A DNA stretch of 64,000 nucleotides. Source: Candidatus Dormiibacterota bacterium (GTDB taxonomy: Bacteria; Chloroflexota; Dormibacteria; Dormibacterales; Dormibacteraceae). The position numbers and the translations under genes are program-made. Below, one piece after another: positions 43,384-62,141 of the stretch (its first letter is position 1; every line of letters begins with the position of its first letter). A model generated the notes under the pieces. It saw nothing but the letters and a program-made list of their open reading frames with translations. It did no database searches and had not been told where the DNA came from. Location: positions 2,668 through 66,667 of the forward strand of contig CAWEGH010000008.1 of assembly GCA_963808785.1 (NCBI GenBank), in the 5' to 3' direction.

Positions 43384-43551
43384 TCAGCCGCCTGGTCTTT
43401 GCTGCGCCATCTCCATCACCCGGTCTTGAAGATGGTACTCAGGCACTGCAGCACGCCTCGCAAGCTCTGACCGGTCGGGCTCGCGGTCGCGCCCGGCTGC
43501 CGGCAAGACCGCCGATGACCTCCCGCTCAACGCACGAATCCATACTGGTGG

Positions 43552-46425: not shown

Positions 46426-46598
46426 CGCGTGTGCGGCCGGAGGTGGCCGCTCCATTAAGTACGTAGCTCGTCGCTGAAGCAGGCCGCGATTCTGGGGTTT
46501 GCGAGGGAGCTTCACTGGACCGATGCTGGCCGGGTCAACCCGCACCACGGTGCACGCCGGAGCTGTCAGCGACGACGGCTCGTGAGAGGAGAAGTCCA

Positions 46599-47660
46599 AT
46601 GTTTGATCCAGAGATCGGCCATGAGGTCGCCCACCTCGCGCGTGCCGAAATCCTCACCCCCAAGCCGGACGGCACCCTGTGGTTTTTCACCAAGCTGCTC
46701 GGCATGTACGAGACGCACCGCGAGGGCCAATCCGTCTACCTGCGTGGCTATGAGGATCCCTACCAGTGGAGCATCAAGGTAACGGAAGCTCCTCAGCCCG
46801 GGCTCGGCCACGTCGCGCTGCGGACAATCTCGCCCCAGGCGCTGGAGCGTCGGGCCGATTCCCTGCGGCAGGCCAATGTCGCCCTCTCCTGGACCGAGGA
46901 TGAGTTCGGCTACGGCAAGACGCTGCGGTTCGATTCCGGCGACGGGCACCGGTTGAGCCTGCTCTGGGAGGTGGAGAGATACCAGGCGCCACCGGAGCTG
47001 CGCAGCAAGATCCTCTGCCGCCCGTCCAGGAAGCCACTGCAGGGCCTCCCCATCAAGCGCCTCGATCATGTCAACCTGCTGGCCGGCGATGTCACGCCGG
47101 TGAAGAAGTTGTTCGAGCGGCACCTCGGCTTCCAGACCCGCGAGCGAGTCGTCGATGGCGACGTCGAAATCGGCGTCTGGATGAGCACGAACCTCCTCGG
47201 CCACGAAGTCGCATGCATGCGTGACTCTCTCGGCGAGCACGGTCGGTTTCACCACCTGGCGATGTTCTACGGCGTTCCGCAGCACAACGTGGACGCGGCA
47301 GAGATGTTTCGGGACTACGACATCCAGATCGAGTGCGGCCCCGACAAACACGGGATCACTCAGGGCTCATTCCTGTATGTGTTCGAGCCTGGCGGCAACA
47401 GAATCGAGCTGTTCGGTGACACTGGCTTTCTCTACTTCGAGCCGGATTACCAGACCCGCACGTGGCAGATGTCGGAGATCGAGACGGGGCTCGCCATCGG
47501 TGGGGCGAGGCTGCCCTTCGAGACCTACTTCACCTATGGCACGCCCAACAAGCTCACCCTCGCAGACCACATCGTTCAGTACTCGAAGCCGTCAGGCCCA
47601 CCCGCCGCGGCGGGTCCAGAGCCAGTGTTGGAGGTGGCTACCCGCGGCCGACCGCGGTGA
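46599..47660 (+). CDS. extradiol ring-cleavage dioxygenase (catechol 2,3-dioxygenase-like, two VOC modules)
   Basis: LGHVALRT..., RLDHVNLLAGDV..., HHLAMFYGVP..., GPDKHGITQGSFLYVFEPGGNRIELF. Confidence 0.85.
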   Translation: MFDPEIGHEVAHLARAEILTPKPDGTLWFFTKLLGMYETHREGQSVYLRGYEDPYQWSIKVTEAPQPGLGHVALRTISPQALERRADSLRQANVALSWTEDEFGYGKTLRFDSGDGHRLSLLWEVERYQAPPELRSKILCRPSRKPLQGLPIKRLDHVNLLAGDVTPVKKLFERHLGFQTRERVVDGDVEIGVWMSTNLLGHEVACMRDSLGEHGRFHHLAMFYGVPQHNVDAAEMFRDYDIQIECGPDKHGITQGSFLYVFEPGGNRIELFGDTGFLYFEPDYQTRTWQMSEIETGLAIGGARLPFETYFTYGTPNKLTLADHIVQYSKPSGPPAAAGPEPVLEVATRGRPR

Positions 47661-47931
47661 CCGACGGCCAGGCGATGTCGTCGATCGCGAGCCACGGCGC
47701 CCGGGCGAACGCGCTGGCGGTCGATCCCATGATGGCCTTGACCTCCCGGTGGAGGCGGGCCGATCGCCGTAGCCACTCTCGGCGAGGAGATGGGCGGCGT
47801 GGTCGAAACGTATCAGCCGGGCCGCGGGCAAACAGGCGACGGCAGGTCGGAAGGCCCGGGCTCAGATAGCCCAGGAGGTAGGTCAACGCGCGTCTGGGCC
47901 ACACGATGCGATACGCGCGTTGTCGACTCAG
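47638..47931 (-). pseudogene. decayed RelE/ParE-like toxin (copy B)
   Basis: The first ~20 codons (LSRQRAYRIVWPRRALTYL) parallel copy A (LSPQRAFRILWRRRSLTHL). The remainder is scrambled across frames. Overlaps the 3' end of the dioxygenase gene. Confidence 0.4.
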
Positions 47932-48109
47932 CGAGAGGCGACCCCGCGACGGCCGATGATCCGGAGGGCCTCCTCGTGGTCGACCAGGTCCGGGTGACCA
48001 CGCTCTATCTCCTGCTCCGCCTGGTCCAATTCCTCGCGCAAACCAGGGTTGGCATCAAAGAGTCTTCGATCACCTCATCGAGCGGATGCCGGCTCACATC
48101 GGTCGCCAT
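47928..48109 (-). pseudogene. antitoxin copy B (paralogue of 48868..49050) with a 1-nt deletion
   Basis: MATDVSRHPLDEVIED, then a frameshift. The corrected frame gives ANPGLREELDQAEQEIERG.PDLVDHEEALRIIGRR, closely matching copy A. Confidence 0.6.
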
Positions 48110-48153
48110 ACCAAGGGGCTCATAAATCGCGCGACCAACAAGGCGCCCACGGC

Positions 48154-48330
48154 TCTATTTGATCCCCGCAGGCCGGGGGACACACGGTACTCGTAGCGCT
48201 CCCGCCAAAGAGGTCCACGGCGGAACCGGCTCACCATGCTCACGAAGATTCTCGATGTAACCAACGATGGCCTCTCGGATCATCTGCTTCACTTCGGCGC
48301 GGGTGTAAGGTCGAACGCGCTGCCTTGAAT
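48154..48330 (-). pseudogene. HicB-like antitoxin fragment
   Basis: TRAEVKQMIREAIVGYIENLREHGEPVPP resembles the conserved HicB/UPF0150 core. The N-terminal part is missing. Confidence 0.4.
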
Positions 48331-48332
48331 GT

Positions 48333-48359
48333 AAAAAGCCCGGGCCTGAGGTCCGGGCT
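48333..48359 (-). terminator. intrinsic terminator following the left copy of the 33-nt repeat
   Basis: Minus strand: GCCCGG-ACCTCAGGC-CCGGGC followed by TTTTTAC. Confidence 0.6.
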
Positions 48360-48370
48360 TGGCGGGATAT

Positions 48371-48403
48371 CGGCTACTCGTCCTCGATCTGGTTGTACAT
48401 CAG
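48371..48403. repeat. 33-nt perfect direct repeat, left copy (putative attL core)
   Basis: CGGCTACTCGTCCTCGATCTGGTTGTACATCAG is identical to 61832-61864. Confidence 0.85.
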
Positions 48404-48598
48404 AAGATGCAATTTCGACCATATGTTCGAGTGATTTTGAACTCAAATCACCGAACTGGCTGCACAAACCTAATGTACTGAGGCTTCTAAGCGCGGTCGT
48501 CGGCGAGCACTCGAAATCGGTCGAATTTGCTAGCGATAAGGCCATCCAGCGGCCCGAGAGCGAGGTGGAGAAAGTCCTGGAAGGGGCCCGGGCCCCGG

Positions 48599-48871
48599 TC
48601 ACCAAGGCCGTGTGCGGCGCCGAGCGTCGCGGACGGCGAGCACGATCATCTCGTTGCCCTCGACCCGATAGAACACTCCCTGGGGAGGCACCGGCGAGTA
48701 CCGGGATCCTCGGCCGACCGCGCGTCCGAGGTTAGTCATCCCGGTCCAGGCGAGCCACTCGACTGCGTCAACGACGGCCTCCGCCTGTCCAGGAGCGCGC
48801 TCAGAGAGCTCGGCCAAGTGGGTCAGCGAGCGTCTGCGCCAGAGGATCCGAAACGCGCGCTGAGGGCTCAG
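48599..48871 (-). CDS. RelE/ParE-family toxin (copy A), no canonical start codon
   Basis: ...PPQGVFYRVEGNEMIVLAVRDARRR C-terminal ParE signature. The frame opens at a CTG that overlaps the antitoxin stop (CTGA). The ORF track starts it at TTG 48817. Confidence 0.55.
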   Translation of the reverse strand: MSPQRAFRILWRRRSLTHLAELSERAPGQAEAVVDAVEWLAWTGMTNLGRAVGRGSRYSPVPPQGVFYRVEGNEMIVLAVRDARRRTRPW

Positions 48872-49050
48872 CGGGACGCGTTCCGGCGGCGGCCGATGAC
48901 CTTGAGCGCCTCTTCGTGGTCGACCAGGTCCGCCTCGCCACGCTCAATCTCGCCCACGGCCTCGTCCAACTCGTCGCGCAAGCCAGGGTTGGCCTCGAAG
49001 ATCTTCTCGATCTCCTCGTCGAGCGGATGCCGGCTGGGGTCGGTCGCCAT
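48868..49050 (-). CDS. small antitoxin (copy A)
   Basis: Uses ATG 49050. MATDPSRHPLDEEIEKIFEANPGLRDELDEAVGEIERGEADLVDHEEALKVIGRRR. Lies directly upstream of, and overlapping, the ParE-like ORF. Confidence 0.55.
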   Translation of the reverse strand: MATDPSRHPLDEEIEKIFEANPGLRDELDEAVGEIERGEADLVDHEEALKVIGRRRNASR

Positions 49051-49396
49051 CGCGTTTGATGCTACCGCCGGTGACCAAGCGCTGCGCCGCATGACGAGGC
49101 ACCTGTCATCAACTCGTTGCGCCGGACGCCCGGCAATCCATGTGGCACCGCGCGGAGGCAGTCAAGGCCGCGAAGCGCCGAAGGGCAGCCTTGACGGCCG
49201 GTGCGGCCGCGACCAGGCTCGGCTCAACGGGTCACGGGCTCGTGACCCATCGGCCGGACCGCTGCCCGCGATACAACACCGCACTCACACTACAAATGCT
49301 CATCCGCTCGCCCCACCAAGCCACCCAACACCGACAGCCACATAACAACAGACACTCAGAACACCCACGAACCATCCAAACCAACGCCCAAATACT

Positions 49397-49467
49397 CGGA
49401 CATTCACGCACCTCAGCCTTTCGAAGAAACCGAGGAACGAGGGGAGGGTGAGGTGCGTGAATGTCCG
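49397..49467 (+). promoter_or_regulatory. perfect 19-bp inverted repeat (33-nt spacer) that encloses an RBS-like GAGGGGAGGG and pairs over ATG 49461
   Basis: CGGACATTCACGCACCTCA (49397-49415) / TGAGGTGCGTGAATGTCCG (49449-49467), read directly. Confidence 0.6.
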
Positions 49468-49685
49468 AGTCCCGTTTCGATCTCGAAACGGGAGCTTTGC
49501 CTGTCCAGTCGGTAGGACACCTGACCAAACAGGCAACCGTCTCGATTTCAGACCATGTACGGACAGCCTCTTGCCACTCAGGCGAGTTTGGATTGGTCCG
49601 CCGGCTCGCCCACGGAGGCCACGCGCAGGAGACGTGCCCACGTACTCTGACGGTGCAGCGCGCGGTTACGGCGGCAGCGAGTGCG

Positions 49686-50277
49686 ATGGTTCTCATCTTC
49701 GAAGGAGCTGACCTGGCAGGCAAGAGCACTCTTGCTCGGCACTACCTTGGCGCGCTCGGCTTGCCAGTCGTCAAGATCCGCTGGGACCTCGGGGATGAGC
49801 GGACAGAGACGATCGCTTTCGCCAGGGTGACCTTGGGGCTCCTGGCCGCAACGCGAGCCGGGGTCATCCTCGACCGTAGCTTCGTCAGCATGTGGGCGTA
49901 CACGCGCGATCCGAAGTGACTACCTGCGTCCCATCATCGAGAGCCTGCGGTACGTACCCGATCTCCACCTGATCGTCTTGACCATGGGCGCGTTGGAACT
50001 GCACCGTCGCTACGTCGAGCGCCCGGACCTGTACTTCAGCGAGAGTCGACTGGAGGAGGTCGACCGACGCTTCGCATTGCTCCCAGCGCTGATGGGCACC
50101 ACGCTTGACGTGCTCCACCTCGACACCGGCGGGATGTCTCCCGATGGCTGTCGCGAGCGCATCGACGACCATCTCGGACTGCACACGGGTCCCTGGCGGC
50201 CAAACGATCGCCGCGGTGGGCAGGAGGTCACGATCCCCATCGGAGAGATCCCGGTCACCATCACGTTCCCGGCCTAA
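49686..50277 (+). pseudogene. thymidylate-kinase-like P-loop kinase with one frameshift
   Basis: MVLIFEGADLAGKST (P-loop) and ILDRSFVSMWAY (DR.xxSxxAY). Stop at 49917. The +1 frame continues DYLRPIIESLRYVPDLHLIVLTMGALELHRRYVERPDLYF... to 50277. Confidence 0.55.
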
Positions 50278-50459
50278 CGCCTATCCAGGCCACCGCCGGG
50301 TACATACTGGGAAGAGCAAGGCGTCACCCACATGGTCCACCAGGCTCACCTCCTTCGCCTCCGGGAGGGGCGAGTCGCTTCCGACACCGCGTTCTGCGGA
50401 GGACGCTGGCCCGCACCGCTGATCGCCGAGATGGCGCAAGCGGCAGCCAGCTTAAGCGG

Positions 50460-50678
50460 CTGAAGGCCTTGCTCACGATCTCCCGCATGGCAGGGCTGCT
50501 CGGTGTCTCGCGCTAAGGGTTCTACGCATGGACTGGGCGCAAAGGGGCGCCGCCGCGCGACGAGGCGTCGGTCGCTGGATGGAGGAGCGCTACAACCGAC
50601 GTCGCGGACACTCCTCGATCGGCATGGTGAGCCCTGCAGCGTTCGAGAAGGCCACACTTCAGACGGCACTCGCCGCCG
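50460..50678 (+). mobile_element. IS3-family transposase remnant (OrfB start fused to OrfB end, internal deletion, in-frame stop)
   Basis: ISRMAGLLGVSR*GFYAWTGRKG (HTH_21-like start) followed after a frameshift by WMEERYNRRRGHSSIGMVSPAAFEKA (typical IS3 OrfB C-terminus). Confidence 0.6.
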
Positions 50679-50806
50679 GATCGATCAGCGGGACGGCGCA
50701 AACTCTCCCGCGGTGCCGACGAGGTCGAGCAGGGCGTCGACGTGTCGCTCGGGGACGATTGGGCAACATCAGCGGGAGGGCGCCGACGTTCGGGGGCGCT
50801 GCAAGC

Positions 50807-52087
50807 CTAGCGGGGTGGAGGCCGCCTCTCCCAGATGTTGTCCTGGAACGCGTCGTAGACGATCGAGAACAGGGACTCAGCCGAGGGGCCGATCGGAGAG
50901 TTGACGAGCACCACCAGCTCCATGTCGTCCGGGAGGTAGAACAGCACCGACTGCTCAACATGTCCGGCGTTGTCTTGCAGGCCCCCGTTCTTCGCGTAGA
51001 GGGTGCCCAGCAGCGTGAAGGTGGCAAAGTCGATCCCGAAGTTGCTGTCGAGCATCGTCTGCGCTTGTTGCTGGCTCACGATCGTGCCGGCGCGACGGAA
51101 CGTGCCCATCACGTTGAGGACATCGTCGATCGTCATGTGCCACCCGGCGCCTCCTGCCATCGTCGTCAGATCGCCAGAGTTCCACCCGGCGCCCGACACC
51201 GGGAAGTTGTAGGCGAGCGCGTCGTCGGGCTCGTGCGCCAGCGTCGCATCGGTTACACCGGAGGGCGCGAACACGTTGGCTTGGACATAGTTCTGGTAGT
51301 CCTGCAGCGTGGCCACGTCCCAGGCCCTGTCGTTGGAGTCGGGCACTTCGAGATGGGGCGGCACCCTCAGCCACGGCGGGACGTTGCCGTTGACCGTCGA
51401 GATCAGGATGCGGCACAGGCCGAAGTTCATGTTCTGGTAGTACCACTTCCCCAGATTGGTCGCGCCGGCCGCGATCTGCGCTTTCATGAACTCGAAGTCC
51501 GACTCCGAGGTGTCAACGTCATAGGCAAGCCCGGACGTGTGCGTCAGCAGATTCGCGAACGTAATCTGGTCTATTTTGGGGCCCTTCTCCCAGTAGTCGG
51601 GCAGGTAGTCGATGATCGGGGTCTTGGACGTGAGGCCCGCCTCGTCGAGCGCCCTGATCATCGCCATCGCGGTCGGCTGCTTGCTCAGGCTGGCCACGTG
51701 ATACCGGACGTCTGGCGTCCAGCTCTCGGCGGTGTCCTGGGGCTCGTGCGCCCAGCCCCAATCGAACCTCCTGAGCGTCTGGCCGCTCTTGTTCAGGGCC
51801 ATCGCGTAGCCCGCGACGGAGTTGTCGAACGCGGCCTGGAGCGTCTCGACAAATCCGTCCGCGTTGAAGATGAAGCCGAGGAACTCTTCCGGACGTCCTC
51901 CGTCCACCGGCCTCGCAGGGGTCGGCGCGCGCTCCACATCGAGACTCCGGTTGGAGGTGAGGCCGAAGACGTTCGCGGGCCGCATCACGTGGGCACGGAT
52001 GGTCGCCGCATCGACCGTGACGCCGCGGATCTGCCTGAGCGCCTCGTCGAGGCGCGCGCTGTCGGTCACGTTCTCAGCGTCGGTCAT
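50807..52087 (-). CDS. beta-lactamase-fold serine hydrolase (paralogue 1)
   Basis: SxxK motif HVASLSKQPTAMAM. YxN motif WYYQNMNFGLCRIL. 426 aa with no obvious signal peptide. Confidence 0.75.
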   Translation of the reverse strand: MTDAENVTDSARLDEALRQIRGVTVDAATIRAHVMRPANVFGLTSNRSLDVERAPTPARPVDGGRPEEFLGFIFNADGFVETLQAAFDNSVAGYAMALNKSGQTLRRFDWGWAHEPQDTAESWTPDVRYHVASLSKQPTAMAMIRALDEAGLTSKTPIIDYLPDYWEKGPKIDQITFANLLTHTSGLAYDVDTSESDFEFMKAQIAAGATNLGKWYYQNMNFGLCRILISTVNGNVPPWLRVPPHLEVPDSNDRAWDVATLQDYQNYVQANVFAPSGVTDATLAHEPDDALAYNFPVSGAGWNSGDLTTMAGGAGWHMTIDDVLNVMGTFRRAGTIVSQQQAQTMLDSNFGIDFATFTLLGTLYAKNGGLQDNAGHVEQSVLFYLPDDMELVVLVNSPIGPSAESLFSIVYDAFQDNIWERRPPPR

Positions 52088-53525
52088 GTCACTCTCCTTG
52101 CGGAGAGGCGAGCCGAGCTCGGCGGCTGTCCGCGGAGGTCGCCGAGGCTCGTCCGTCGGCCCGATCGAACGAGGATCCGGCTCATGGCGAGTCGCGAAGG
52201 CACTCGCAGAACCCTCTCAACGCATCGCGGTCCACTCAATGATCGGCCTCCGGGGTGAATCGTCATGGTCGAGCCTCGTAGACGATGTTGAAAGGGGTCT
52301 CTGCGACCCGTCGGAACCGGGTGAATCCGGCGCCCACCACGATGTTGCGGATCTGTGCCTCACCCGCTTGTGCGCCGAGCGCCAAGCGCCCCTCCTGCGA
52401 CAGTGAGCATGGCGTGCACAGCAGCGTGGAGAAGGCGTAATAGGCGCGGCCCACCGGATTGAGGTTGTCCTCCACGCGATCGCCCGCTGCGGGCTCGACA
52501 ATCATCCACGTTCCATCCGGGGCCAATGCGTCTCGTACATGCCGGGCCGCTCCGGCTGGGTCGCCCATGTCATGGAGGCAGTCGAACATGGTCACCAGGT
52601 CGTAGCCCTGACCGGGGAACGCCGCCGCCGGTGCCACCTCGAAGAGGGTTCTTTCGTGGAGACCAGCTGCCGAGGCCCGCCGGCAAGCAGTCGCGACCGA
52701 AGCGCCGTGGTAGTCGTAGCCGACGAACTTCGAGGCGGGGAAAGCTGAGGACATCAGGATGGTCGAGGCCCCGTGTCCGCATCCCACGTCGGCCACCGAG
52801 GCGCCCTCCTCGAGCTTGGCCACAACGCCGTCCAATGCGGGCAACCATTCCGTGACGAGGTGAGCATTGTATCCGGGGCGGAAGAAGCGCTCGCACCCTT
52901 CGTGCACATCGGCCACGTGATCATCCCAGCCGATCCCGGCGCCGGTCTTAGCGACCTGCATGACCCTGGGCGAATCGATCACCGAGCCAAGTGCGATCTG
53001 GAATATCCCGGGCAGATAGGCGGGACTCGACTCGTCAGTGAGGGCGATTGCCTGCTCGGGCGGTAGGCGGTATCTGTTGCTCTCGGGATCGTACTCGACG
53101 AACCGCCCCGCGGCTTGGGCGCACAACCACTCGCGCGTGTAGCGCTCGGCGGTGCCAGTCCGCTCCGCCAGCTCGATGGAGGTGAGTGGCCCGGCGCCCG
53201 CCAGCGCCTTGTACAGGCCCAGCTTGTCACCCATCACCACCAGGGCGGTGTTGAGTGTGGCGCCGACCTCGTCGACGCCTCGGTGGACGAAGCTCATCAG
53301 TTTGTCCATATCCACGCTGACCACGGATGGCTGTACTGTCATGGTTGACTCCTCTCGAATAAATCATCCCGGCGGGTGCATCCTGGGGGCACGAGGGCAA
53401 GGTACGGCAGCCCACGATGCGAAGTCGTCAGGTATTCGCCCTACAAATCGAGCGGCTCAAGAGAGTCGAGAAGACCGTGCTGCATCGCGAAAAGGGTCGC
53501 TGTGGAGCGGGAGGAGGCTCCGATC
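51990..53525. repeat. 1,536-bp perfect direct repeat, copy 1
   Basis: All ORF translations in this span are duplicated identically at +2,886 nt. I checked the boundaries by eye at both ends. Confidence 0.85.
52263..53342 (-). CDS. winged-helix + class I SAM-dependent methyltransferase (Rv2258c-like architecture), copy 1
   Basis: Motif I ASVADVGCGHGAST. N-terminal LGLYKALAGAGPLTSIELAERTGTAERYTREWL. The 359-aa translation is identical to 55149..56228. Confidence 0.8.
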   Translation of the reverse strand: MTVQPSVVSVDMDKLMSFVHRGVDEVGATLNTALVVMGDKLGLYKALAGAGPLTSIELAERTGTAERYTREWLCAQAAGRFVEYDPESNRYRLPPEQAIALTDESSPAYLPGIFQIALGSVIDSPRVMQVAKTGAGIGWDDHVADVHEGCERFFRPGYNAHLVTEWLPALDGVVAKLEEGASVADVGCGHGASTILMSSAFPASKFVGYDYHGASVATACRRASAAGLHERTLFEVAPAAAFPGQGYDLVTMFDCLHDMGDPAGAARHVRDALAPDGTWMIVEPAAGDRVEDNLNPVGRAYYAFSTLLCTPCSLSQEGRLALGAQAGEAQIRNIVVGAGFTRFRRVAETPFNIVYEARP

Positions 53526-53683
53526 CAGCGCCCTCACCGGCTACCTGACCGCCACCGTCCACCTGCCCGGCACCGGCTTCGTGAACCAGCCTGGACCTCG
53601 GCCTCGGGGATCAAAGTGCGCAGCCGCGCCGCCCCGGTGACCGTGCGCTGAGCGTGCCGTCGGCCGCCGCCCGCCCGGCCGGC

Positions 53684-54973
53684 TCAGAGGTTCGGAACGA
53701 TGTTGCTGAGGTAGAAGTTCTGGACGAGGTCGAGGAGGGGCAGCCCGGGAAACTCGTCGCCGGGTGTCACCGGTGCGACGGGCGAATTGACGAGTACGAC
53801 CACCTCAAAGCCCTGGGGCAGGAAGAAGGCGACCGACTGCTCCACGTGACCAGCGGAGTCCACGAAGCCCCCGGGCTTTGCATAGAGCGTGCCCAGCTCG
53901 GTGGAGGCGATTAGATCAACGCCAATGCCGTTGTCGAGTATCGCCTGGGCCTCCTGAGCCCCCAGAATCGGCAGTCTGCCGGTAAGGAAGGTCCCCATGA
54001 CCGAGGCCAGCTCCCCGGCGGTCATGTGCCACCCCGCCCCGCCGGCCATTGTGGTCAGGTCACCCGAGTCCCAGCCTGGCCGCACGGGTGGAATCGCGTA
54101 GGCGATCGCGTCGTCTGTGGGGTGGTCGAGCGTCGGTCCGGATACGCCCGCCGGCGCGAACACGTGGGATGTGACCCAATTCACGTAGTCGGTGATCGTG
54201 ATCGAATCCCAGACCTGGTCCGTCAGGTTCGCGAGCGAGCCCGTCAGCTGGAAATCTACCGGTATCGACCCATGAACGGTGGCAATCAGAATCCGGCAGA
54301 GGCCGTAGTCCATGTTCTCGTACCAGTACTCGCCGTTGTGAACCGCGCCGTCGGCGACCTGCGCCTTCATGTATTCGTAGTCAGACCTGGACGAGACAAC
54401 GCCGTAGCCGATCCCCGACGTGTGGGTCAACAGCTGCAGGAACGTGACCTCGCTGATGCCCGGCCCCTTCGTCCAATACGCCGGAAGGTAGTCGATGATC
54501 GGGGTCTCGGGTGAGATCAACTGGTCGGTAAGGCACTGCATCATCGCGATCGCGGTGATGATCTTGCTGCAACTGGCGATATGCATCCGCACGCCCGTGC
54601 TCCAGGGCTCGTTGGGGCCTGCGAGCCCCCTAACGTGTGCGAAAGGCTCCTGCGCCCACTGATAGGTGAGCGAGCGAACCGGGTCCCCATCCTGGCGCAG
54701 CTCCATCTGGTAACCGGCGACCTGATCCGCAAGTGTGGACTGCAGGTCAGTAATGAACCCGTCGATGTCGAACACGTGCTGGGCGAGTGACGACGGCGAA
54801 ACGGAGTGACTGTCCGGCGGCTGGCCAAGACCCTGATCCGACCTCACTCCCACAACATTCGGTGGGTACATCACATGGGCACGGATGGTCGCCGCATCGA
54901 CCGTGACGCCGCGGATCTGCCTGAGCGCCTCGTCGAGGCGCGCGCTGTCGGTCACGTTCTCAGCGTCGGTCAT
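53684..54973 (-). CDS. beta-lactamase-fold serine hydrolase (paralogue 2)
   Basis: SxxK motif HIASCSKIITAIAM. YxN motif YWYENMDYGLCRIL. The first 35 aa are identical to paralogue 1 and the rest is strongly diverged. Confidence 0.75.
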   Translation of the reverse strand: MTDAENVTDSARLDEALRQIRGVTVDAATIRAHVMYPPNVVGVRSDQGLGQPPDSHSVSPSSLAQHVFDIDGFITDLQSTLADQVAGYQMELRQDGDPVRSLTYQWAQEPFAHVRGLAGPNEPWSTGVRMHIASCSKIITAIAMMQCLTDQLISPETPIIDYLPAYWTKGPGISEVTFLQLLTHTSGIGYGVVSSRSDYEYMKAQVADGAVHNGEYWYENMDYGLCRILIATVHGSIPVDFQLTGSLANLTDQVWDSITITDYVNWVTSHVFAPAGVSGPTLDHPTDDAIAYAIPPVRPGWDSGDLTTMAGGAGWHMTAGELASVMGTFLTGRLPILGAQEAQAILDNGIGVDLIASTELGTLYAKPGGFVDSAGHVEQSVAFFLPQGFEVVVLVNSPVAPVTPGDEFPGLPLLDLVQNFYLSNIVPNL

Positions 54974-56411
54974 GTCACTCTCCTTGCGGAGAGGCGAGCC
55001 GAGCTCGGCGGCTGTCCGCGGAGGTCGCCGAGGCTCGTCCGTCGGCCCGATCGAACGAGGATCCGGCTCATGGCGAGTCGCGAAGGCACTCGCAGAACCC
55101 TCTCAACGCATCGCGGTCCACTCAATGATCGGCCTCCGGGGTGAATCGTCATGGTCGAGCCTCGTAGACGATGTTGAAAGGGGTCTCTGCGACCCGTCGG
55201 AACCGGGTGAATCCGGCGCCCACCACGATGTTGCGGATCTGTGCCTCACCCGCTTGTGCGCCGAGCGCCAAGCGCCCCTCCTGCGACAGTGAGCATGGCG
55301 TGCACAGCAGCGTGGAGAAGGCGTAATAGGCGCGGCCCACCGGATTGAGGTTGTCCTCCACGCGATCGCCCGCTGCGGGCTCGACAATCATCCACGTTCC
55401 ATCCGGGGCCAATGCGTCTCGTACATGCCGGGCCGCTCCGGCTGGGTCGCCCATGTCATGGAGGCAGTCGAACATGGTCACCAGGTCGTAGCCCTGACCG
55501 GGGAACGCCGCCGCCGGTGCCACCTCGAAGAGGGTTCTTTCGTGGAGACCAGCTGCCGAGGCCCGCCGGCAAGCAGTCGCGACCGAAGCGCCGTGGTAGT
55601 CGTAGCCGACGAACTTCGAGGCGGGGAAAGCTGAGGACATCAGGATGGTCGAGGCCCCGTGTCCGCATCCCACGTCGGCCACCGAGGCGCCCTCCTCGAG
55701 CTTGGCCACAACGCCGTCCAATGCGGGCAACCATTCCGTGACGAGGTGAGCATTGTATCCGGGGCGGAAGAAGCGCTCGCACCCTTCGTGCACATCGGCC
55801 ACGTGATCATCCCAGCCGATCCCGGCGCCGGTCTTAGCGACCTGCATGACCCTGGGCGAATCGATCACCGAGCCAAGTGCGATCTGGAATATCCCGGGCA
55901 GATAGGCGGGACTCGACTCGTCAGTGAGGGCGATTGCCTGCTCGGGCGGTAGGCGGTATCTGTTGCTCTCGGGATCGTACTCGACGAACCGCCCCGCGGC
56001 TTGGGCGCACAACCACTCGCGCGTGTAGCGCTCGGCGGTGCCAGTCCGCTCCGCCAGCTCGATGGAGGTGAGTGGCCCGGCGCCCGCCAGCGCCTTGTAC
56101 AGGCCCAGCTTGTCACCCATCACCACCAGGGCGGTGTTGAGTGTGGCGCCGACCTCGTCGACGCCTCGGTGGACGAAGCTCATCAGTTTGTCCATATCCA
56201 CGCTGACCACGGATGGCTGTACTGTCATGGTTGACTCCTCTCGAATAAATCATCCCGGCGGGTGCATCCTGGGGGCACGAGGGCAAGGTACGGCAGCCCA
56301 CGATGCGAAGTCGTCAGGTATTCGCCCTACAAATCGAGCGGCTCAAGAGAGTCGAGAAGACCGTGCTGCATCGCGAAAAGGGTCGCTGTGGAGCGGGAGG
56401 AGGCTCCGATC
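54876..56411. repeat. 1,536-bp perfect direct repeat, copy 2
   Basis: See copy 1. Offset 2,886 nt. Confidence 0.85.
55149..56228 (-). CDS. winged-helix + class I SAM-dependent methyltransferase, copy 2
   Basis: The 359-aa translation is identical to 52263..53342. Confidence 0.8.
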   Translation of the reverse strand: MTVQPSVVSVDMDKLMSFVHRGVDEVGATLNTALVVMGDKLGLYKALAGAGPLTSIELAERTGTAERYTREWLCAQAAGRFVEYDPESNRYRLPPEQAIALTDESSPAYLPGIFQIALGSVIDSPRVMQVAKTGAGIGWDDHVADVHEGCERFFRPGYNAHLVTEWLPALDGVVAKLEEGASVADVGCGHGASTILMSSAFPASKFVGYDYHGASVATACRRASAAGLHERTLFEVAPAAAFPGQGYDLVTMFDCLHDMGDPAGAARHVRDALAPDGTWMIVEPAAGDRVEDNLNPVGRAYYAFSTLLCTPCSLSQEGRLALGAQAGEAQIRNIVVGAGFTRFRRVAETPFNIVYEARP

Positions 56412-57928
56412 TTGGAGTAAATCCGCTCTATATGCGTGCCGGCCGTCTTCGGGGTGATTCCGAGAAAGCGTGCTACCTGCTTGTTCGCCGCACCGCGGGC
56501 GATGAGGAGCAGCACCTCGATCTCGCGCTCGGTCAGACCGGCCGCGACACTGTGCCGCCTACTTCGCCGCCGCCCCGTAGCGGTGAGGACCGCGTCGACT
56601 GCATCCGGGGCCAAGCGACCGGACCGGACTTGGAGTCGGAGCTGCTCGATGGCCACCTTCGCCGTGAGTGCCGGGCGGTAGGAGCGAGGCTCGGTCATTG
56701 CCTGGTAAGCGCAGGCGGCAGCGAGGATCCGTCCGCCTAGGGGGATCGCCGGCCCTACCAGGCCCCGGTGATAGCCCGAGCCATCGAGTCGCTCGTTTAC
56801 CGTCGCCGCGACCGCACCGATTCGGGCCAAGGCCGCTGGGCGGCTCAGCATTCGTTCGGTGTAGTAGGCGTGCATCCGCACCCGCTCCCGTTCGCGGACG
56901 GTAAGCGGCCCGGGCTTGTCGAGGATGGTGGCCGGTATGCCGTGGAACCCTAGATCGTGCACCAGGCCGGCTCGGCGTATCAGTCGGACCTGAGGCGGCG
57001 GCAGGCCGCAAAGCTCACCGGCAGCGCTAGCCAAGTTGGCCACCGCTCGGGAGTGCCCCGCACGAAACGTCGACCGCAGGTCGGTGAAGTCCGCGATCGC
57101 CTCCAGCGCGCCGTCCAGGTCGTCCCCTGTCAGTCGGCGCTGCAGGCCCGATTCGCGCTCGATCAGCCCGTCCCAGTCAGGCACCTCGTTCATGTCTGCG
57201 AGCACCTCCGCCGGGGCCGCGCAGAACGCATCCACTACCGCGGGGTCGAACTGGCCGCCGCGCCACGATTCGGCCAGCTCAACAGCTTCATCGAGGCCCT
57301 CCGTGCGGTGGATCACCTCCAGCACGTCGGCAAGATGGAACAGCCGCATGGTCAGGGCGATCTGCTCGCCGGCGATCCCGACAGGGACGCCCTTGCCGTC
57401 CCAGCGAGTGAACACTTGCTGCAGCGGATTACAGATCTCGCTGAGACCCAACCTTTCCGCCATAACCGCCGTCGTCGCGCAGTGAGCCATCAGCCCCCGC
57501 TCCACGGCCGCACCCCCGGTGGCGACCAGCGCGGCTGCGAGGCGGAGGCGATGCAATGGCGAGCCCCCCGCGCCGACGTGGCGGAGCACGAACGCCGTCA
57601 TCGGCAGTCCAGCCCGATCCACGCCGAAGCTGTCGCCTCGGTACGCGATGTCGTTGCCGAACCACGCCGCCACCTCCGGCGTGTCTGCAACACAACCGAC
57701 CCAGCTCAACGTGGCCACGTAGAAGAGTAACTCGCGCTCGTTCGCCTGCAAGCCGATGCGCTCGCTCATGCGTGCAGCAATCAGCCATGCCCGCAGGACA
57801 TGCTCCATGGGCTGGCCGAGGCCGAGATCGGTCGCAAGCGAGAATGCAGCGATCAGTTCAGACAGACGAACACCTGAGTCATCACTCATGTCTCTTCTTG
57901 TCGGGGGAGTCGCCACTGTGGATTTCAC
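56327..57928 (-). CDS. HD-GYP-like phosphohydrolase domain fused to a LuxR-type HTH
   Basis: LVHDLGFHGIPATILDKPGPLTVRERERVRMH...NERLDGSGYHRGL (HD-GYP pattern with HHE replaced by VNE). C-terminus LTEREIEVLLLIARGAANKQVARFLGITPKTAGTHIERIYSKIG. Confidence 0.75.
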   Translation of the reverse strand: MKSTVATPPTRRDMSDDSGVRLSELIAAFSLATDLGLGQPMEHVLRAWLIAARMSERIGLQANERELLFYVATLSWVGCVADTPEVAAWFGNDIAYRGDSFGVDRAGLPMTAFVLRHVGAGGSPLHRLRLAAALVATGGAAVERGLMAHCATTAVMAERLGLSEICNPLQQVFTRWDGKGVPVGIAGEQIALTMRLFHLADVLEVIHRTEGLDEAVELAESWRGGQFDPAVVDAFCAAPAEVLADMNEVPDWDGLIERESGLQRRLTGDDLDGALEAIADFTDLRSTFRAGHSRAVANLASAAGELCGLPPPQVRLIRRAGLVHDLGFHGIPATILDKPGPLTVRERERVRMHAYYTERMLSRPAALARIGAVAATVNERLDGSGYHRGLVGPAIPLGGRILAAACAYQAMTEPRSYRPALTAKVAIEQLRLQVRSGRLAPDAVDAVLTATGRRRSRRHSVAAGLTEREIEVLLLIARGAANKQVARFLGITPKTAGTHIERIYSKIGASSRSTATLFAMQHGLLDSLEPLDL

Positions 57929-58338
57929 CAGTGCGGGTCGGGGGTCTCGCCGAGGCGGTGCAGCACGTGCAAAACCTACTCGTACCCAGCGGCCGGCGCC
58001 TTGTCGATCGAACGGGAATCACCGGGACCCCTCCCGTCAGAGCGGACATACTCGGCGGCACCCAGAAGAAACATCGCATGCGTCGTACGAAGGTCCTCGG
58101 GTCGTCGGTTGGCGCGTCAGGTCCGTTGACAAGCACCGCGGCCGCTCCGGTGGCAGTCAGGTCTCAGATCGACCAAGATGCGTTGCACCAAGGAACGCGA
58201 CCTCCTGGGTCGCACCGTGCCGCATGGTTGCCGGTGCGTCCTAAATGGGGCGAAGGGGTGCAGGGGGAACCGCCCCGGCGTCGGTTCCCCCGCCCGGTCC
58301 GCCAGGACCGACGTGATGGCCGCCTCCGATCAAACCAA

Positions 58339-59412
58339 ACACATGTATGGGGTATCCATTTGAGTGGCAGCGCCCCCAAGATCTAGTAATCGCTCCGGGG
58401 CGCGATGAGCTCGTAGTACGGATGAGGATCGGTGGCAACGGCCTGCTCCACGAGCCGGTACCAGAGCAGCCCGCGAGCCTTGGAGGCTCGACGGTTGAAG
58501 CGGAACGTGTACTCGTCGAGGTAGTACCCGAGCTGACGGGCATCCAGGCCGTTCTGGATGGTTCCGGCGAGCCAGCGTTTGAGCAGCGACGCGACTCGGT
58601 GGACACCCGGCAGCAGTTCGTGCGCCAACGAGCCGGAGTGCTCGATGGTCCGCTGATCGACGGTCACTCCGACCTTCTCGCCGAAGTCCTGGTAAAGGGG
58701 GTCGCCATCCGTCTGCAGGATCGATCCCGGGGCCACGTTCGTTTTCGCGAAGCTCACCAGGTCGAGCTTTCGACGCGTCCGGTCGATGACCGACATCCGA
58801 ATGCGACCCAGCCCTCGCATCTGAGCCGCTGCATGCTCGACCGCGATCACGACCTCGGCCTTGTTGTAGTACCGCGGCGTATTCATTCCGGGCGTCCGGC
58901 CACCGATGAAGGTGCAGTCCATCTCGACCACTCGGCCTGGACCTCCGAGCTTCTCGCGGTCCGGACGCACCATGGCGCGGCGCAGTTTGTGCATCCAGGC
59001 CCAGGCGGTCTGGTACGAGCCGAACCCGAGGACGCGCTGCAGACCCAGGGCCGAGACGCCGTTCTTCTGGGCGCAGATGAACCACATAGCCGCGAACCAG
59101 GTCGGGAGCGGCAGGTGCGAACGGTGGAAGATCGTGCCCGCGGTTGCCGACGTTTTGCGCCCACAGCGCCGGCACATCCATCGGGGCCCGGCCACTTTCC
59201 AGGCGTCCCCGTGCCCACATGCCGGACACACGAAGCCAGCCTTCCACCGCACACGGGCCAGGAACTCGACGCAACTGCCCTCGTCCGGAAACCATCGCTC
59301 GAATGCCTGCCAGCCTCCGGGGTAGTCGCGACCGGCTTGAGGGTGATCTTCATCTGCCACGAGCACAAGATACTGGGGCTACTGCATTCAAGCAGATACC
59401 CCATACACATGT
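58339..59412 (-). mobile_element. IS1595-family insertion sequence
   Basis: Terminal inverted repeats ACACATGTATGGGGTATC (58339-58356) and GATACCCCATACACATGT (59395-59412) match at 16 of 18 positions. No clear target duplication seen. Confidence 0.8.
58383..59366 (-). CDS. IS1595-family (ISXO2-like) transposase
   Basis: N-terminal zinc ribbon FVCPACGH...WMCRRCGRKTS. DDE region VEMDCTFIGG...ILQTDGDPLY...DEYTFRFNRR. Confidence 0.9.
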   Translation of the reverse strand: MLVADEDHPQAGRDYPGGWQAFERWFPDEGSCVEFLARVRWKAGFVCPACGHGDAWKVAGPRWMCRRCGRKTSATAGTIFHRSHLPLPTWFAAMWFICAQKNGVSALGLQRVLGFGSYQTAWAWMHKLRRAMVRPDREKLGGPGRVVEMDCTFIGGRTPGMNTPRYYNKAEVVIAVEHAAAQMRGLGRIRMSVIDRTRRKLDLVSFAKTNVAPGSILQTDGDPLYQDFGEKVGVTVDQRTIEHSGSLAHELLPGVHRVASLLKRWLAGTIQNGLDARQLGYYLDEYTFRFNRRASKARGLLWYRLVEQAVATDPHPYYELIAPRSDY

Positions 59413-59552
59413 ACGAGGCTGGGCCGCCCCGGGAGCCGCGAAACGCCGTGGATGCCACCCCGTCCGGGTGCCGGACTATCCCGGGAGCCCGGGCATGTCG
59501 CGCCCCCCGTCCGGACTGGACCCCGGTCGCTGCTCCGGAGCGACCATGGATG

Positions 59553-59966
59553 TCACGTCGGCCCGCGCGGGGCCTTCCGCCGGCGAGGTTTCCAGAGCCG
59601 CCCGCCCCGCGGCCCGTACACGAACGCGGTCGCTGGGGCTTGGTCAACCATTCGGTGTACCCACCGGTGGACAATCTCCGAGCGCCACTGATCCTCGGAG
59701 AGCGCCGAGCCGCGAGGCAGGGCGTCGGTGATGCACACCGATACCGTCGATCGCGCGATGGCGTCCGCGTGGTCACGAGGCATGTTGACATCCCCGGTCA
59801 CGAGGACAGGGTCCGGCTCGCGCTGTGTGAGCTCATCCAGCAGCGCCGAGTCATCAGCGCCACGCAGCCCGAGGGCACCGATCGTGATGGCCCGCCGCCC
59901 GCGTCGATCCAGTTCGGTCGCGAGCCGCTTGTGGAGGCTTTCGTCGACCACGATGAGCCGGGCCAA
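59553..59966 (-). CDS. PIN-like toxin-type protein (DUF5615/Mut7-C-like)
   Basis: MARLIVVDESLHKRLATELDRRGRRAITIGALGLRGADDSALLDEL...PVLVTGDVNM. Lies immediately downstream of a DUF433-type gene. Confidence 0.6.
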   Translation of the reverse strand: MARLIVVDESLHKRLATELDRRGRRAITIGALGLRGADDSALLDELTQREPDPVLVTGDVNMPRDHADAIARSTVSVCITDALPRGSALSEDQWRSEIVHRWVHRMVDQAPATAFVYGPRGGRLWKPRRRKAPRGPT

Positions 59967-59974
59967 GCTCGGGC

Positions 59975-60655
59975 TCAGGCGGCTGGCGCGAGTTCTGAAA
60001 CGGCCGCGTACCAGCGGACAGCGTCGTCGATCTCCGCGTCAGAGAGGTCGTAGCCCTCACGAAGCGTCGCCCACCCATCGTGTTCGGCTGCCATCCGGGC
60101 GACCTGCTCCGCAGGGATGCGGCGACCACGGACACTTGGCGTCCCGCCGATCTTCGCGGGATCCACCTCGATCGTCTTGACATCCAGGTCGCGAACCACC
60201 CAACCACCTCGCCGAAGCAGGGCTGCGATCTCCTGCAGGTGCGCGTACGGCAGTAAGGGCTGATCACCACGTGCGTGATTCGCGTGGAGTACCTCGCGCC
60301 CTTCTCGGACGCCGAGGAAGGGCGCCGCACCCTCGTCAACATCGGCCGTGACCAGGTCGGCCGTAGTCAACGGCCAGTCCCCGTACTTCTCCCGCAGGTT
60401 TTGGATCGCCGAGCGGATCTCCCGCTGGGGAACACCGCGGTCCAGCAGCTCGTGCACCACGATCGCTTCGGCGACGTCCTGGAAGCTGTACACGCGGGGC
60501 CGACCCTCCGACCGTGACGACCGGATGTATCCGTGCCGGGCCCATTGGCCAATTCGGTCGCCGGACACTCCGGCGAGCCAGCCGACCTCATGTGCCAGGT
60601 ACCACCCCACCGGCGGTGACTCCGCTTGGTGGGTGACGGTTTGCATGCCGGTCAT
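59975..60655 (-). CDS. MerR-like HTH + DUF433 domain protein (putative antitoxin partner)
   Basis: WYLAHEVGWLAGVSGDRIGQWARHGYI...YSFQDVAEAIVVHELL (MerR-like). C-terminus DPAKIGGTPSVRGRRIPAEQVARMAAEHDG...YDLSDAEIDDAVRWY (DUF433). The start is uncertain, between 60646 and 60775. Confidence 0.6.
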   Translation of the reverse strand: MTGMQTVTHQAESPPVGWYLAHEVGWLAGVSGDRIGQWARHGYIRSSRSEGRPRVYSFQDVAEAIVVHELLDRGVPQREIRSAIQNLREKYGDWPLTTADLVTADVDEGAAPFLGVREGREVLHANHARGDQPLLPYAHLQEIAALLRRGGWVVRDLDVKTIEVDPAKIGGTPSVRGRRIPAEQVARMAAEHDGWATLREGYDLSDAEIDDAVRWYAAVSELAPAA

Positions 60656-60764
60656 CCTATCCATCTCGGGCATCCAAGGCTCCCCGAACGAATGTACGAG
60701 CCCTGAGACGGCCGCAACGCCCGGAAAGGCACTCGCGCAACTCCTGACACGTGGTCCCGGACGG

Positions 60765-61706
60765 TCAGTCGCCATCGGGCCGCAGCGCCTTGATGAGCGC
60801 GTTGTAGACGTCGCCGGAGGTCAGGTGGCCGTAGTGCTGGTGGATCATCCGCAGCGACGTGTGGCCCAGCATCTCGGCCACCAGCATCGGGTTCATCCCC
60901 TGCTGCAGAAGAAACGTGGCGGCCGCGTGCCGGAAGGCATGGGGCCGTACGGGCTTCCCCAGGTCCGCGGCGTCGCCCAGGTTGTAGAGCATCTGCTCCA
61001 GGCCGGCGTAGGAGAGCGGACGGTCGAGCCCGGTGCGGTCGCGCTTGAGCGTTCGAAAGAGGTGCTGCTCCGGGTCCAGGTGGCGGCCAAGACGGCGCAT
61101 CCGGCGGAAGGTCGACGGCGTGACCGGCACCAGCCGCTCGCGCGATCCCTTGCCGAAGACCTTGACCATGGTCCGCGGGCCGCTCTGCGTCAGGTCTCGC
61201 ATCCGGATCCCCAGGAGCTCTGAGGCGCGCAGGCCAGTCTCGGACAGGACACGCACGATGACCGCATCACGGTCGGAGCGGGCGAGATCCTCGAGCTTGG
61301 CGATCTCTTCCCGTGTCAGGACGTCCATCACGCGCTTAGGCAGACGCGGGGTCCGAGCTCGTGCTCGGCCTCCGCCGCCCTCCCGCTCTGCCCAACCGAG
61401 GAAGACGTTGATCGCGTTGAGGTAGGAGTTGACGCTGTACTTGCTGAGGGGCTTGCCTCTCGCTGCGCCCACGCCCTCCTGCAGCTGGATCGAGAGCCGG
61501 TTTAGGGTCCGCTGATCGAGCTGGGCCACGTCGTCGATGCCTTCGCGGTCGCAGAACGGGAGCAACACCTTCTCCAGCGGATAGCGGTATGTCACCCGCA
61601 GGGTCTTCGGCGAGAGGCCTCGCGCGGCGCAGTCCAGGAGGTAGTCCGACACCAGCCGCGAGATTGCGGAGGGGGGCTCCGTTTTCGATACGAGTTTTAC
61701 GTTCAA
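60765..61706 (-). CDS. tyrosine-type site-specific integrase
   Basis: TTG start at 61706. RDAVIVRVLSETGLRASELLGI...; HAFRHAAATFLLQQGMNPMLVAEMLGHTSLRMIHQHYGH. Confidence 0.9.
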   Translation of the reverse strand: MNVKLVSKTEPPSAISRLVSDYLLDCAARGLSPKTLRVTYRYPLEKVLLPFCDREGIDDVAQLDQRTLNRLSIQLQEGVGAARGKPLSKYSVNSYLNAINVFLGWAEREGGGGRARARTPRLPKRVMDVLTREEIAKLEDLARSDRDAVIVRVLSETGLRASELLGIRMRDLTQSGPRTMVKVFGKGSRERLVPVTPSTFRRMRRLGRHLDPEQHLFRTLKRDRTGLDRPLSYAGLEQMLYNLGDAADLGKPVRPHAFRHAAATFLLQQGMNPMLVAEMLGHTSLRMIHQHYGHLTSGDVYNALIKALRPDGD

Positions 61707-61793
61707 ACCTGGGTTACTGTACTATCTAAGTGCGATCGTCGTCAAGGGGTCGCAAGCGATCGTGAGAAGCTCGAAGAGGCTACTTTTGAATAC

Positions 61794-61819
61794 AAAAAAG
61801 CCCGAGCCGAAGCCCGGGC
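61794..61819 (-). terminator. intrinsic terminator following the right copy of the 33-nt repeat
   Basis: Minus strand: GCCCGGGC-TTCG-GCTCGGGC followed by TTTTTTG. Confidence 0.65.
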
Positions 61820-61831
61820 GTGGACAATGTC

Positions 61832-61864
61832 CGGCTACTCGTCCTCGATCTGGTTGTACATCAG
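61832..61864. repeat. 33-nt perfect direct repeat, right copy (putative attR core)
   Basis: Identical to 48371-48403. The integrase start lies about 125 nt to its left. Confidence 0.85.
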
Positions 61865-62141
61865 GACGTCCTGGATCTCGAACAGCACTTCCATCGTCTC
61901 CGCGACATTTGTGCGCGGCTGCGGCCGCGAGGGAGCTGACGTCGACCTCGCCGATCAGCTTGTCGACCGCGGTCGAGATCGGCGTCGGGACGTCCGAGCG
62001 ATCGGCGAGGTTGAGCATCTCGAGCTCGTTGAGCAGCTGGTCGATGTAGCGCATCGTGTTGCGCCGCCAGTACTTAGCCTGGCTGACCCGCCGATCGCGC
62101 TCTCGAACGCGGTCGATGGCCAGGCTCGCTTCTTCGATCAT
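61834..62141 (-). pseudogene. small conserved-looking ORF (integration target) whose 3' end is out of frame with its body
   Basis: Body frame: MIEEASLAIDRVRERDRRVSQAKYWRRNTMRYIDQLLNELEMLNLADRSDVPTPISTAVDKLIGEVDV... The terminator-proximal frame reads TNVAETMEVLFEIQDVLMYNQIEDE* (stop at 61834-61836). The body frame itself runs on through the terminator to 61722. Confidence 0.4.

Follow-up and report, generated by a model that had tools for sequence, protein, structure and literature searches.

The stretch of DNA considered here (the window, 64,000 nt) comes from a metagenome-assembled genome of an uncultured bacterium of Candidatus Dormibacterota, an abundant soil phylum. Towards its right-hand end, a segment of ~13.5 kb (48404-61831) with a gene for a Xer-like tyrosine integrase is bounded by a 33-nt direct repeat, one copy of which coincides with the 3' end of a small protein-coding gene conserved in this phylum. 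An initial annotation, made from the letters alone, described the segment as an island inserted into that gene. In this study we compare the locus with its counterparts in related genomes and consider what kind of element it is.

The target gene, which is listed with the other features of the locus in Table 1, belongs to a family of 99-104 aa proteins (312 homologues detected), in which the C-terminus ...EIQDxLM(Y/F)NQIEDE is almost invariant. The protein has no match in Pfam, NCBIfam or PHROGs and no significant sequence match in the PDB; its AlphaFold model is all-helical (pLDDT 81) and has no Foldseek match with E < 1. The gene is divergent to that of an ArsR-like regulator and lies beside a YjeF_N gene, an order kept in nearly all of the 80 Dormibacterota genome loci that we fetched around the target gene for comparison (loci are cited below by L numbers). 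The initial designation of the target as a protein gene of ~100 codons, rather than a tRNA gene, is borne out by this conserved family of ~101 codons; a tRNA target is excluded, there being no tRNA within 43-64 kb. In the window the gene contains an extra G at 61922 (GGCC[G]CAGCC), which is missing from the four closest relatives and which, lying 58 nt before the repeat, puts the gene out of frame from codon 74, thus splitting the conserved 101-codon gene into two frames. It is because of this extra G that the public annotation gives a 139-aa product (P0005) running through the terminator. The extra nucleotide may be an assembly error or may reflect a real pseudogene, and hence inactivation.

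The repeat itself, CGGCTACTCGTCCTCGATCTGGTTGTACATCAG, occurs in exactly two copies in the window, both in direct orientation and with 0 mismatches between them, and no third copy is found in the whole window even when up to 3 mismatches are allowed, the chance expectation being 0. Read on the minus strand, both copies contain an open frame ending in ...LMYNQIEDE plus the stop codon. As initially described, the similarity of the two junctions beyond the repeat is one-sided: on the terminator side 34/46 nt (74%) and 50/71 nt (70%) are identical, and on the opposite side 21/47 nt, which is about the chance level. An intrinsic terminator had been assigned to each copy. The assignment stands for the gene-proximal copy; the hairpin following the distal copy (about 48333-48360) fails a strict terminator scan, but has a stable fold (-21.2 kcal/mol, z = -3.1) followed by UUUUU. 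Immediately inside the distal copy the DNA is AT-rich, with 40% G+C over 48404-48480 as against about 66-69% in the surroundings, and contains the expected 7-bp hairpin, GTGATTT/AAATCAC, at 48431-48451. The same AT-rich end holds an imperfect inverted repeat of ~25 nt, GCAATTTCGACCATATGTTCGAGTG / CACTCGAAATCGGTCGAATTTGC, which begins 5 nt from the distal core and has partly conserved counterparts in L011 and L106; proteins may bind to it within attP, the attachment site of the element, or it may be an RNA structure ending the toxin-antitoxin transcript.

The integrase open reading frame (ORF) begins 125 nt inside the gene-proximal copy, as first reported, and encodes a two-domain tyrosine recombinase (PF00589, E = 2e-25; phrog_1, E = 2e-42), in which the catalytic residues R-K-H-R-H-Y are kept as they are across its clade. 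The promoter-like TTGACG-18-TACAGT initially placed between the repeat and this ORF is likewise present. The best NCBIfam models are those of the Xer recombinases (XerA, XerC, XerD); the scores reached are 127.8 bits against a cut-off of 220, 109 against 335 and 100 against 330. A housekeeping Xer recombinase is, like the island integrase, a ~300-aa two-domain tyrosine recombinase without an arm-binding domain, but scores so far below these cut-offs, together with a gene that is not universal, led us to reject this identity: only a minority of genomes have the integrase, and in these it invariably occupies this site and adjoins variable cargo. A separate Xer-like gene, 31% identical to the integrase, is present at 22685-23200. 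An integron was also rejected, the integron-integrase model scoring 57.5 bits against a cut-off of 265 and the repeats being copies of the target-gene end, not attC sites.

The state of the site in relatives is central to the argument. Among 73 informative species representatives, that is, those with enough downstream DNA or an integrase match, 68 have no related integrase after the target gene, so that the unoccupied site sought since the initial annotation is the rule. The closest syntenic relative is the 736-kb contig L012, in which the target protein shows 90% identity to P0001 (among intact homologues, the one nearest to the window gene). The match of L012 to the window extends from 63998 to 61779 and takes in both the target gene and its terminator; there follow 2.2 kb with two unrelated genes, after which the matches resume from 43393 downward, in ABC permease genes. 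Because homology breaks at 61779 and resumes at 43393, an interval of 2.2 kb in L012 corresponds to one of 18.4 kb in the window, and L012 thus provides, at the level of synteny, an unoccupied site matched on both sides. In the 80 loci the core of the repeat occurs once, where the target gene ends, except in L011, L072 and L055; each of these has a second copy at the far end of an inserted segment, with an integrase in L011 and L072 and without one in L055. The initial concern that the 33-mer could be a dispersed multi-copy repeat is thereby removed.

Occupied sites are also numerous. Integrases 51-98% identical to that of the island lie directly after the same target gene in at least a dozen other genomes or contigs, in elements with different cargo (L010, L011, L106, L072, L080, L090-L096, L101, L102, L107 and L108), and six of these elements (L011, L072, L095, L096, L101 and L108) are bounded by a 26-41-nt direct repeat of the same core. 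The integrases directly after the target gene in L037, L072, L080, L090-L096, L101, L102 and L107 are 54-62% identical. The repeat-bounded elements measure 4.4 kb in L072, 6.1 kb in L095 (41-nt repeat, 93%), 4.5 kb in L096 and L101 and 7.1 kb in L108, and family members as a whole span 3.7-13.5 kb. The converse search gave the same association: metagenome contigs scanned with the integrase alignment returned 16 loci, and wherever the match was full-length, at 51% identity or more, and accompanied by enough upstream DNA, the integrase directly followed the target gene (9/9). What the elements have in common is restricted to the integrase end and the toxin-antitoxin end, their cargo being different, so that relatives carrying the enclosed genes independently of the repeats, another outcome envisaged at the outset, are not what is observed. 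More distant integrases, 42-50% identical, lie elsewhere, after tRNA-Phe in L100 (100-176) and after tRNA-His in L103 (1689-1764); in L098 such an integrase is found ~100 nt after a 3' fragment (5840-5895) read by eye as tRNA-Val, for which ARAGORN makes no call. Since these relatives adjoin tRNA genes, the clade specific for the protein gene appears to have arisen among tRNA-targeting integrases.

In the repeat-bounded relatives the two copies are identical from the CTG-ATG step at codon 93 to about the stop codon, which is why we would place strand exchange within roughly 29 nt. The last ~27 nt of the target gene, ATGTACAACCAGATCGAGGACGAGTA, are nearly invariant in nucleotide sequence across loci of which the proteins are only 50-60% identical. 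This near-invariance probably results from conserved residues combined with preferred codons ending in G or C (GC3), and we do not take it as a sign of an extra function; selection on the core DNA or RNA itself may be an alternative cause.

Individual loci illustrate how such elements vary. L010 and L011, from one Microflora Danica (MFD) assembly, have an integrase 97% identical and a far arm (49565-48435) 89% identical to those of the window, with a different and shorter middle. In L011 the repeat-bounded element is 8.7 kb, and beyond its distal core copy lie a terminator and then a second, truncated integrase; in L010 a 620-bp deletion takes out the distal core junction. L106, with an integrase 98% identical to that of the window, is a triple array. 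It reads, from the target gene outward, core, integrase 1, toxin-antitoxin pair and WXG100-deaminase toxin module; then a core with a 1-nt deletion, an N-terminally truncated integrase 2 and a second deaminase module; and finally an orphan terminator/promoter remnant, a methyltransferase, a LuxR-type regulator and another toxin-antitoxin pair. Two successive elements of L106 (4882-6008, 7590-8720) each have a WXG100/MafB19-type deaminase polymorphic-toxin gene and, after it, a small, probable immunity gene, and on this account same-site islands can be said to carry modules of inter-bacterial competition. In L055 (10280-12956) a 2.6-kb core-bounded segment contains, as judged by eye from the ORF translations, an AbiEi/AbiEii-like pair and no integrase. 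Integrase remnants directly follow the terminator in L001, L002 and L008, where they are internally deleted, and in L009, where the remnant is degraded. The contig L108 both starts and ends with the core, which is equally expected from branching of a de Bruijn graph at an integrated repeat.

Taken together, the perfect repeats, the intact integrase, the unoccupied sites, the link between integrase clade and site, the variable cargo and the arrays elsewhere lead us to conclude, with a probability of roughly 0.88, that 48404-61831 is a site-specific integrative genomic island of ~13.5 kb, a 'mobile genomic island' with an integrase as its only mobility gene, and, with the same probability, a member of a family whose target is the 3' end of a single conserved Dormibacterota gene of ~101 codons. 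The attL/attR footprint of an element bringing a replacement 3' end for its target, as initially proposed, is supported by the same evidence. That the repeat would instead be a by-product of segmental duplication or of metagenome mis-assembly, with the integrase an unrelated resident recombinase, we regard as very improbable: the window does come from a metagenome-assembled genome, in which a 1.5-kb near-perfect duplication and the 1-nt frameshift could be assembly errors, but the same architecture recurs in independent assemblies (MFD, ENA, JGI and Logan), 33 nt is too short for a chimeric join at k = 127-141, and the integrase clade is strictly tied to the target gene.

From the known action of tyrosine integrases, the Xer-like enzyme would recombine attP of the element with the chromosomal site, attB, the strand exchange occurring inside the ~29-nt core CTGATGTACAACCAGATCGAGGACGAGTA, which corresponds to codons 93-101 and the stop codon. 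The attP would hold about 80-100 nt resembling the 3' end of the gene and its terminator. The data support an attachment site overlapping the last nine codons and, in the element, a look-alike of this end and its terminator, with which the gene retains an identical C-terminus and a terminator after insertion; on the classical model the proximal terminator is the one supplied by the element. The displaced original end is left orphaned at the far junction, at 48371-48403, together with its terminator. The integrase would be transcribed from the promoter-like site just past the borrowed terminator, and its message is possibly leaderless, the first start codon lying about 10 nt beyond the end of the -10 element. 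The backbone would thus consist of the integrase end and the ParE-like toxin-antitoxin/AT-rich-arm end, with cargo swapped in between, and the toxin-antitoxin pair probably stabilises the island. Newly arriving elements would enter the gene-proximal site and push the older, decaying ones outward, and tandem arrays and remnants would be the outcome of successive integrations at one site and of later deletions. The island may still be mobile and may pass from cell to cell.

Table 1. Features of the island, its target gene and its left flank (window coordinates)
Feature	Position	Strand	Basis or remark
Target gene, Dormibacterota-conserved all-helical ~101-aa protein, with extra G at 61922	61835..62141	-	homologues, frame comparison, structure model
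Gene-proximal 33-nt repeat, att core, attR-type junction	61832..61864	.	overlaps last 9 codons and stop codon of target gene
Intrinsic terminator after proximal copy	61790..61819	-	stem 61819-61800 and T-run
Promoter-like TTGACG-18-TACAGT upstream of integrase	61716..61745	-	9/12 consensus positions; conserved in L011
Xer-like tyrosine integrase, 313 aa, R160 K186 H256 R259 H282 Y292	60765..61706	-	PF00589, clade alignment
Cargo: MerR-helix-turn-helix (HTH)/DUF433 protein, putative antitoxin of adjoining PIN-like gene	59975..60775	-	domain match
Cargo: PIN-like/DUF5615 protein	59553..59966	-	weak match, E = 0.004-0.008
IS1595-family insertion sequence (IS); transposase 58383-59366; 28-nt inverted ends 58339-58366/59385-59412	58339..59412	-	repeats, domain match
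Cargo: HD-GYP (HD_5) and LuxR-HTH regulator	56327..57928	-	domain match
Cargo segment: two serine-hydrolase (beta-lactamase family) genes, 50807-52087 and 53684-54973, 52% identical, and the methyltransferase genes of the next row	50807..56228	-	
Cargo: two identical methyltransferase genes	52263-53342, 55149-56228	-	
IS3-type rve fragment	50528..50830	+	weak match, E = 0.0016
Conserved far arm	48599..49565	-	84-90% identical in L010, L011, L106
Start of P-loop-kinase-like ORF, in far arm	within 48599..49565	-	weak match
Antitoxin, in far arm	48868-49092	-	
ParE-like toxin, in far arm	48599-48817	-	weak match, E = 0.006
AT-rich element end beside distal core	48404..48598	.	holds imperfect ~25-nt inverted repeat 48409-48433/48508-48530
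Distal 33-nt repeat, attL-type junction	48371..48403	.	exact second copy
Terminator-like hairpin and U-run after distal copy	48333..48360	-	folding, repeat analysis
Second non-syntenic segment, possibly a decayed older element	43391..48370	.	comparison with L012
HicB-like fragment, in left segment	48155-48292		
Antitoxin pseudogene, in left segment	47878-48109		frameshifted, 79-86% identical to 48818-49050
Extradiol-dioxygenase-like gene, in left segment	46599-47660		
LuxR/AAA regulator, in left segment	43552-46425		

The cargo of the island is largely as first described: the IS1595 element, the HD-GYP/LuxR regulator, the DUF433/MerR protein, the two paralogous hydrolases and the two methyltransferases are firm, and the ParE-like, PIN-like and IS3 assignments rest on weak matches. 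A 1,543-nt segment at 51983-53525 is repeated at 54869-56411 with 99.9% identity; it takes in the methyltransferase gene in full, ~35 codons from the start of a serine hydrolase and 27 from the end of the HD-GYP regulator; outside it the remainder of the two hydrolase genes is about 66% identical. This repeat may have arisen by recent duplication or gene conversion, or as an artefact of assembly. A 26-nt inverted repeat (49394-49419/49445-49470, 96% complementary, with a 25-nt loop) separates the antitoxin gene of the far arm from the P-loop-kinase-like ORF, and its surroundings are conserved in L010, L011 and L106, in the last of these twice. A defence-system scan of the cargo returned weak partial domain matches only. 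Exact-sequence look-up of the target ORF, the integrase and the antitoxin of the window found no identical record and no attP-bearing contig.

The content of the island bears also on the possibility that it is a prophage or an integrative conjugative element (ICE). The integrase does match the phage integrase family phrog_1; the other PHROGs matches in the island are confined to a MerR-like regulator and, weakly, a kinase-like protein. Against such an identity, no phage structural (capsid or tail), terminase or lysis genes occur among the ORFs tested; Pfam and NCBIfam searches of the larger island ORFs, which did not cover the small ORFs exhaustively, gave no match to relaxase, coupling-protein or type IV secretion genes; no relative of the integrase is found in 2.9 million viral contigs; and family members reach only 3.7-13.5 kb. 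We therefore give this possibility hardly any weight, and call the island a 'mobile genomic island', a term that denotes an element with its own integrase and without conjugation or phage signature genes (PMC7563491), because that is the combination found here.

Several observations weigh against our interpretation. The empty site is known by synteny and not to the base, because L012 differs in the 2.2 kb following the terminator, and no base-precise empty site was found from the same species. The target gene is frameshifted in the window, and if the frameshift is real, the replacement 3' end gives no functional rescue in this genome. The composition of the island is mildly atypical, with 65.5% G+C as against 68.7% and a tetranucleotide correlation with the host of 0.93-0.955 as against 0.965-0.986; the comparison of inside and outside suggested by the initial annotation thus shows a contrast that is small and not decisive on its own. 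No conserved excisionase candidate was recognised in the island, and the cargo, with its IS element, its IS remnant and its duplication, suggests ageing. Among close relatives, moreover, the integrase (81-90%) and the flanking ArsR-like gene (71-90%) diverge alike, and for this reason long residence with vertical inheritance fits as well as recent transfer. These last points, together with the deleted or degraded integrases in L001, L002, L008 and L009 and the loss of the distal att site in L010, would be accommodated if the island were a fixed, immobile and vertically inherited remnant, of which the repeats and the integrase have not yet decayed. We consider this unlikely, though deserving of attention, since the 33-nt copies are identical although no coding constraint acts on the distal one, the integrase is encoded at full length and lacks none of its catalytic residues, conservation of the far arm reaches 84-90%, and integrases 97-98% identical are accompanied by quite different cargo, which points to recent turnover.

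A further question concerns the left boundary. In the initial annotation the DNA to the left of the distal copy was treated as plain host flank, which does not hold, as 43391-48370 is non-syntenic with L012. This raises the possibility that the island is the newest, gene-proximal member of an array, of which 43391-48370 would be an older element devoid of integrase and outer att site, the variable region then being 18.4 kb and not 13.5. In keeping with this, homology to L012 ends at about 61779 and resumes only at 43393, the two genes in the L012 gap are missing from the window, and the left segment contains a frameshifted copy of the element antitoxin as well as a HicB-like fragment; furthermore, the most decayed member is furthest from the gene in the arrays of L106 and L011, an order also reported for streptococcal elements (PMC7563491). 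However, there is no third core copy, not even a degenerate one, and no integrase remnant in 43-48.4 kb, so that the older-element reading of this segment stays unproven; its dioxygenase and LuxR/AAA genes were not found as cargo in other elements, L106 offering only a weak LuxR-domain match; and the downstream region differs among all close relatives, so that the segment could be lineage-specific host DNA. On balance we place the array a little below even odds. It extends the interpretation of 48404-61831 as an integrative island and does not exclude it.

Integration at the 3' end of a protein-coding gene has well-studied precedents. According to PMC13626634, which cites Hill et al. 1989, e14 and phage 21 in icd of E. 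coli K-12 supply a replacement 3' end and leave an orphan icdC, and excision of e14 recombines the two copies of the icd end. The two elements, e14 and the island, are alike in that a tyrosine-integrase element sits in the 3' part of a protein-coding gene, with a replacement end and an orphan C-terminal fragment. They differ in host phylum, target gene and integrase lineage, and in that e14 is a cryptic prophage with SOS-induced excision, whereas the island has no phage genes; likewise, the duplicated part comprises a 33-nt perfect core and a terminator of ~70% identity in the island, as against a longer coding stretch in e14. In streptococci, the ICE, the integrative and mobilisable elements (IMEs), the mobile genomic islands (MGIs) and the cis-mobilisable elements (CIMEs) involve tyrosine integrases for the 3' ends of rpsI, rpmG, rplL and fda, and through tandem accretion the most decayed members, which have no integrase, come to lie at the greatest distance from the target gene (PMC7563491). 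These elements share with the island family the choice of the 3' end of a conserved protein gene, flanking direct repeats and tandem accretion, and the core-bounded segment of L055 resembles the integrase-less CIME remnants. Phylum and target differ, and most streptococcal elements have conjugation or mobilisation modules, transfer having been shown for some, while the island has no recognisable transfer function. As to islands targeting tRNA genes, the more distant integrase relatives (42-50%) likewise lie beside tRNA genes or the fragment read as one, in contrast to the protein-coding target of the window island.

In a full-text literature search the phylum and an integrase came up together in three papers only, with a single mention in each, and no such element was found described in Candidatus Dormibacterota. 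The target site is previously undescribed, and the element is otherwise a clear and ordinary example of a well-known kind; no new principle is involved, the classical model being already established for e14/icd and for the streptococcal ICEs and IMEs.

What the locus does provide is the documentation, in Dormibacterota, of a family of integrative islands and of its att site, with an unoccupied site and many independent occupied ones, and with it a defined set of integrase, attP and attB. An integrase lineage whose distant relatives use tRNA genes here uses a protein gene. A bolder proposal would be that a phylum-restricted, minimal Xer-like lineage exchanged tRNA genes for the 3' end of this small protein gene as its target, making the site a principal hotspot of gene acquisition in Dormibacterota through repeated tandem accretion and decay; its integrases would have neither an arm-binding domain nor a recognisable excisionase, and the inverted repeats of the AT-rich arm, together with the copied terminator hairpin, would form the attP architecture. 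We regard this proposal, taken as a whole, as speculative and, at present, improbable. If it were correct, the integrase/att pair would constitute a ready-made integration tool for Dormibacterota, a phylum for which we know of no genetic system. More immediately, the target locus, with toxin-antitoxin pairs, polymorphic deaminase toxins, regulators and hydrolases seen there across elements, is one place of fast turnover of gene content in the genomes of Dormibacterota.

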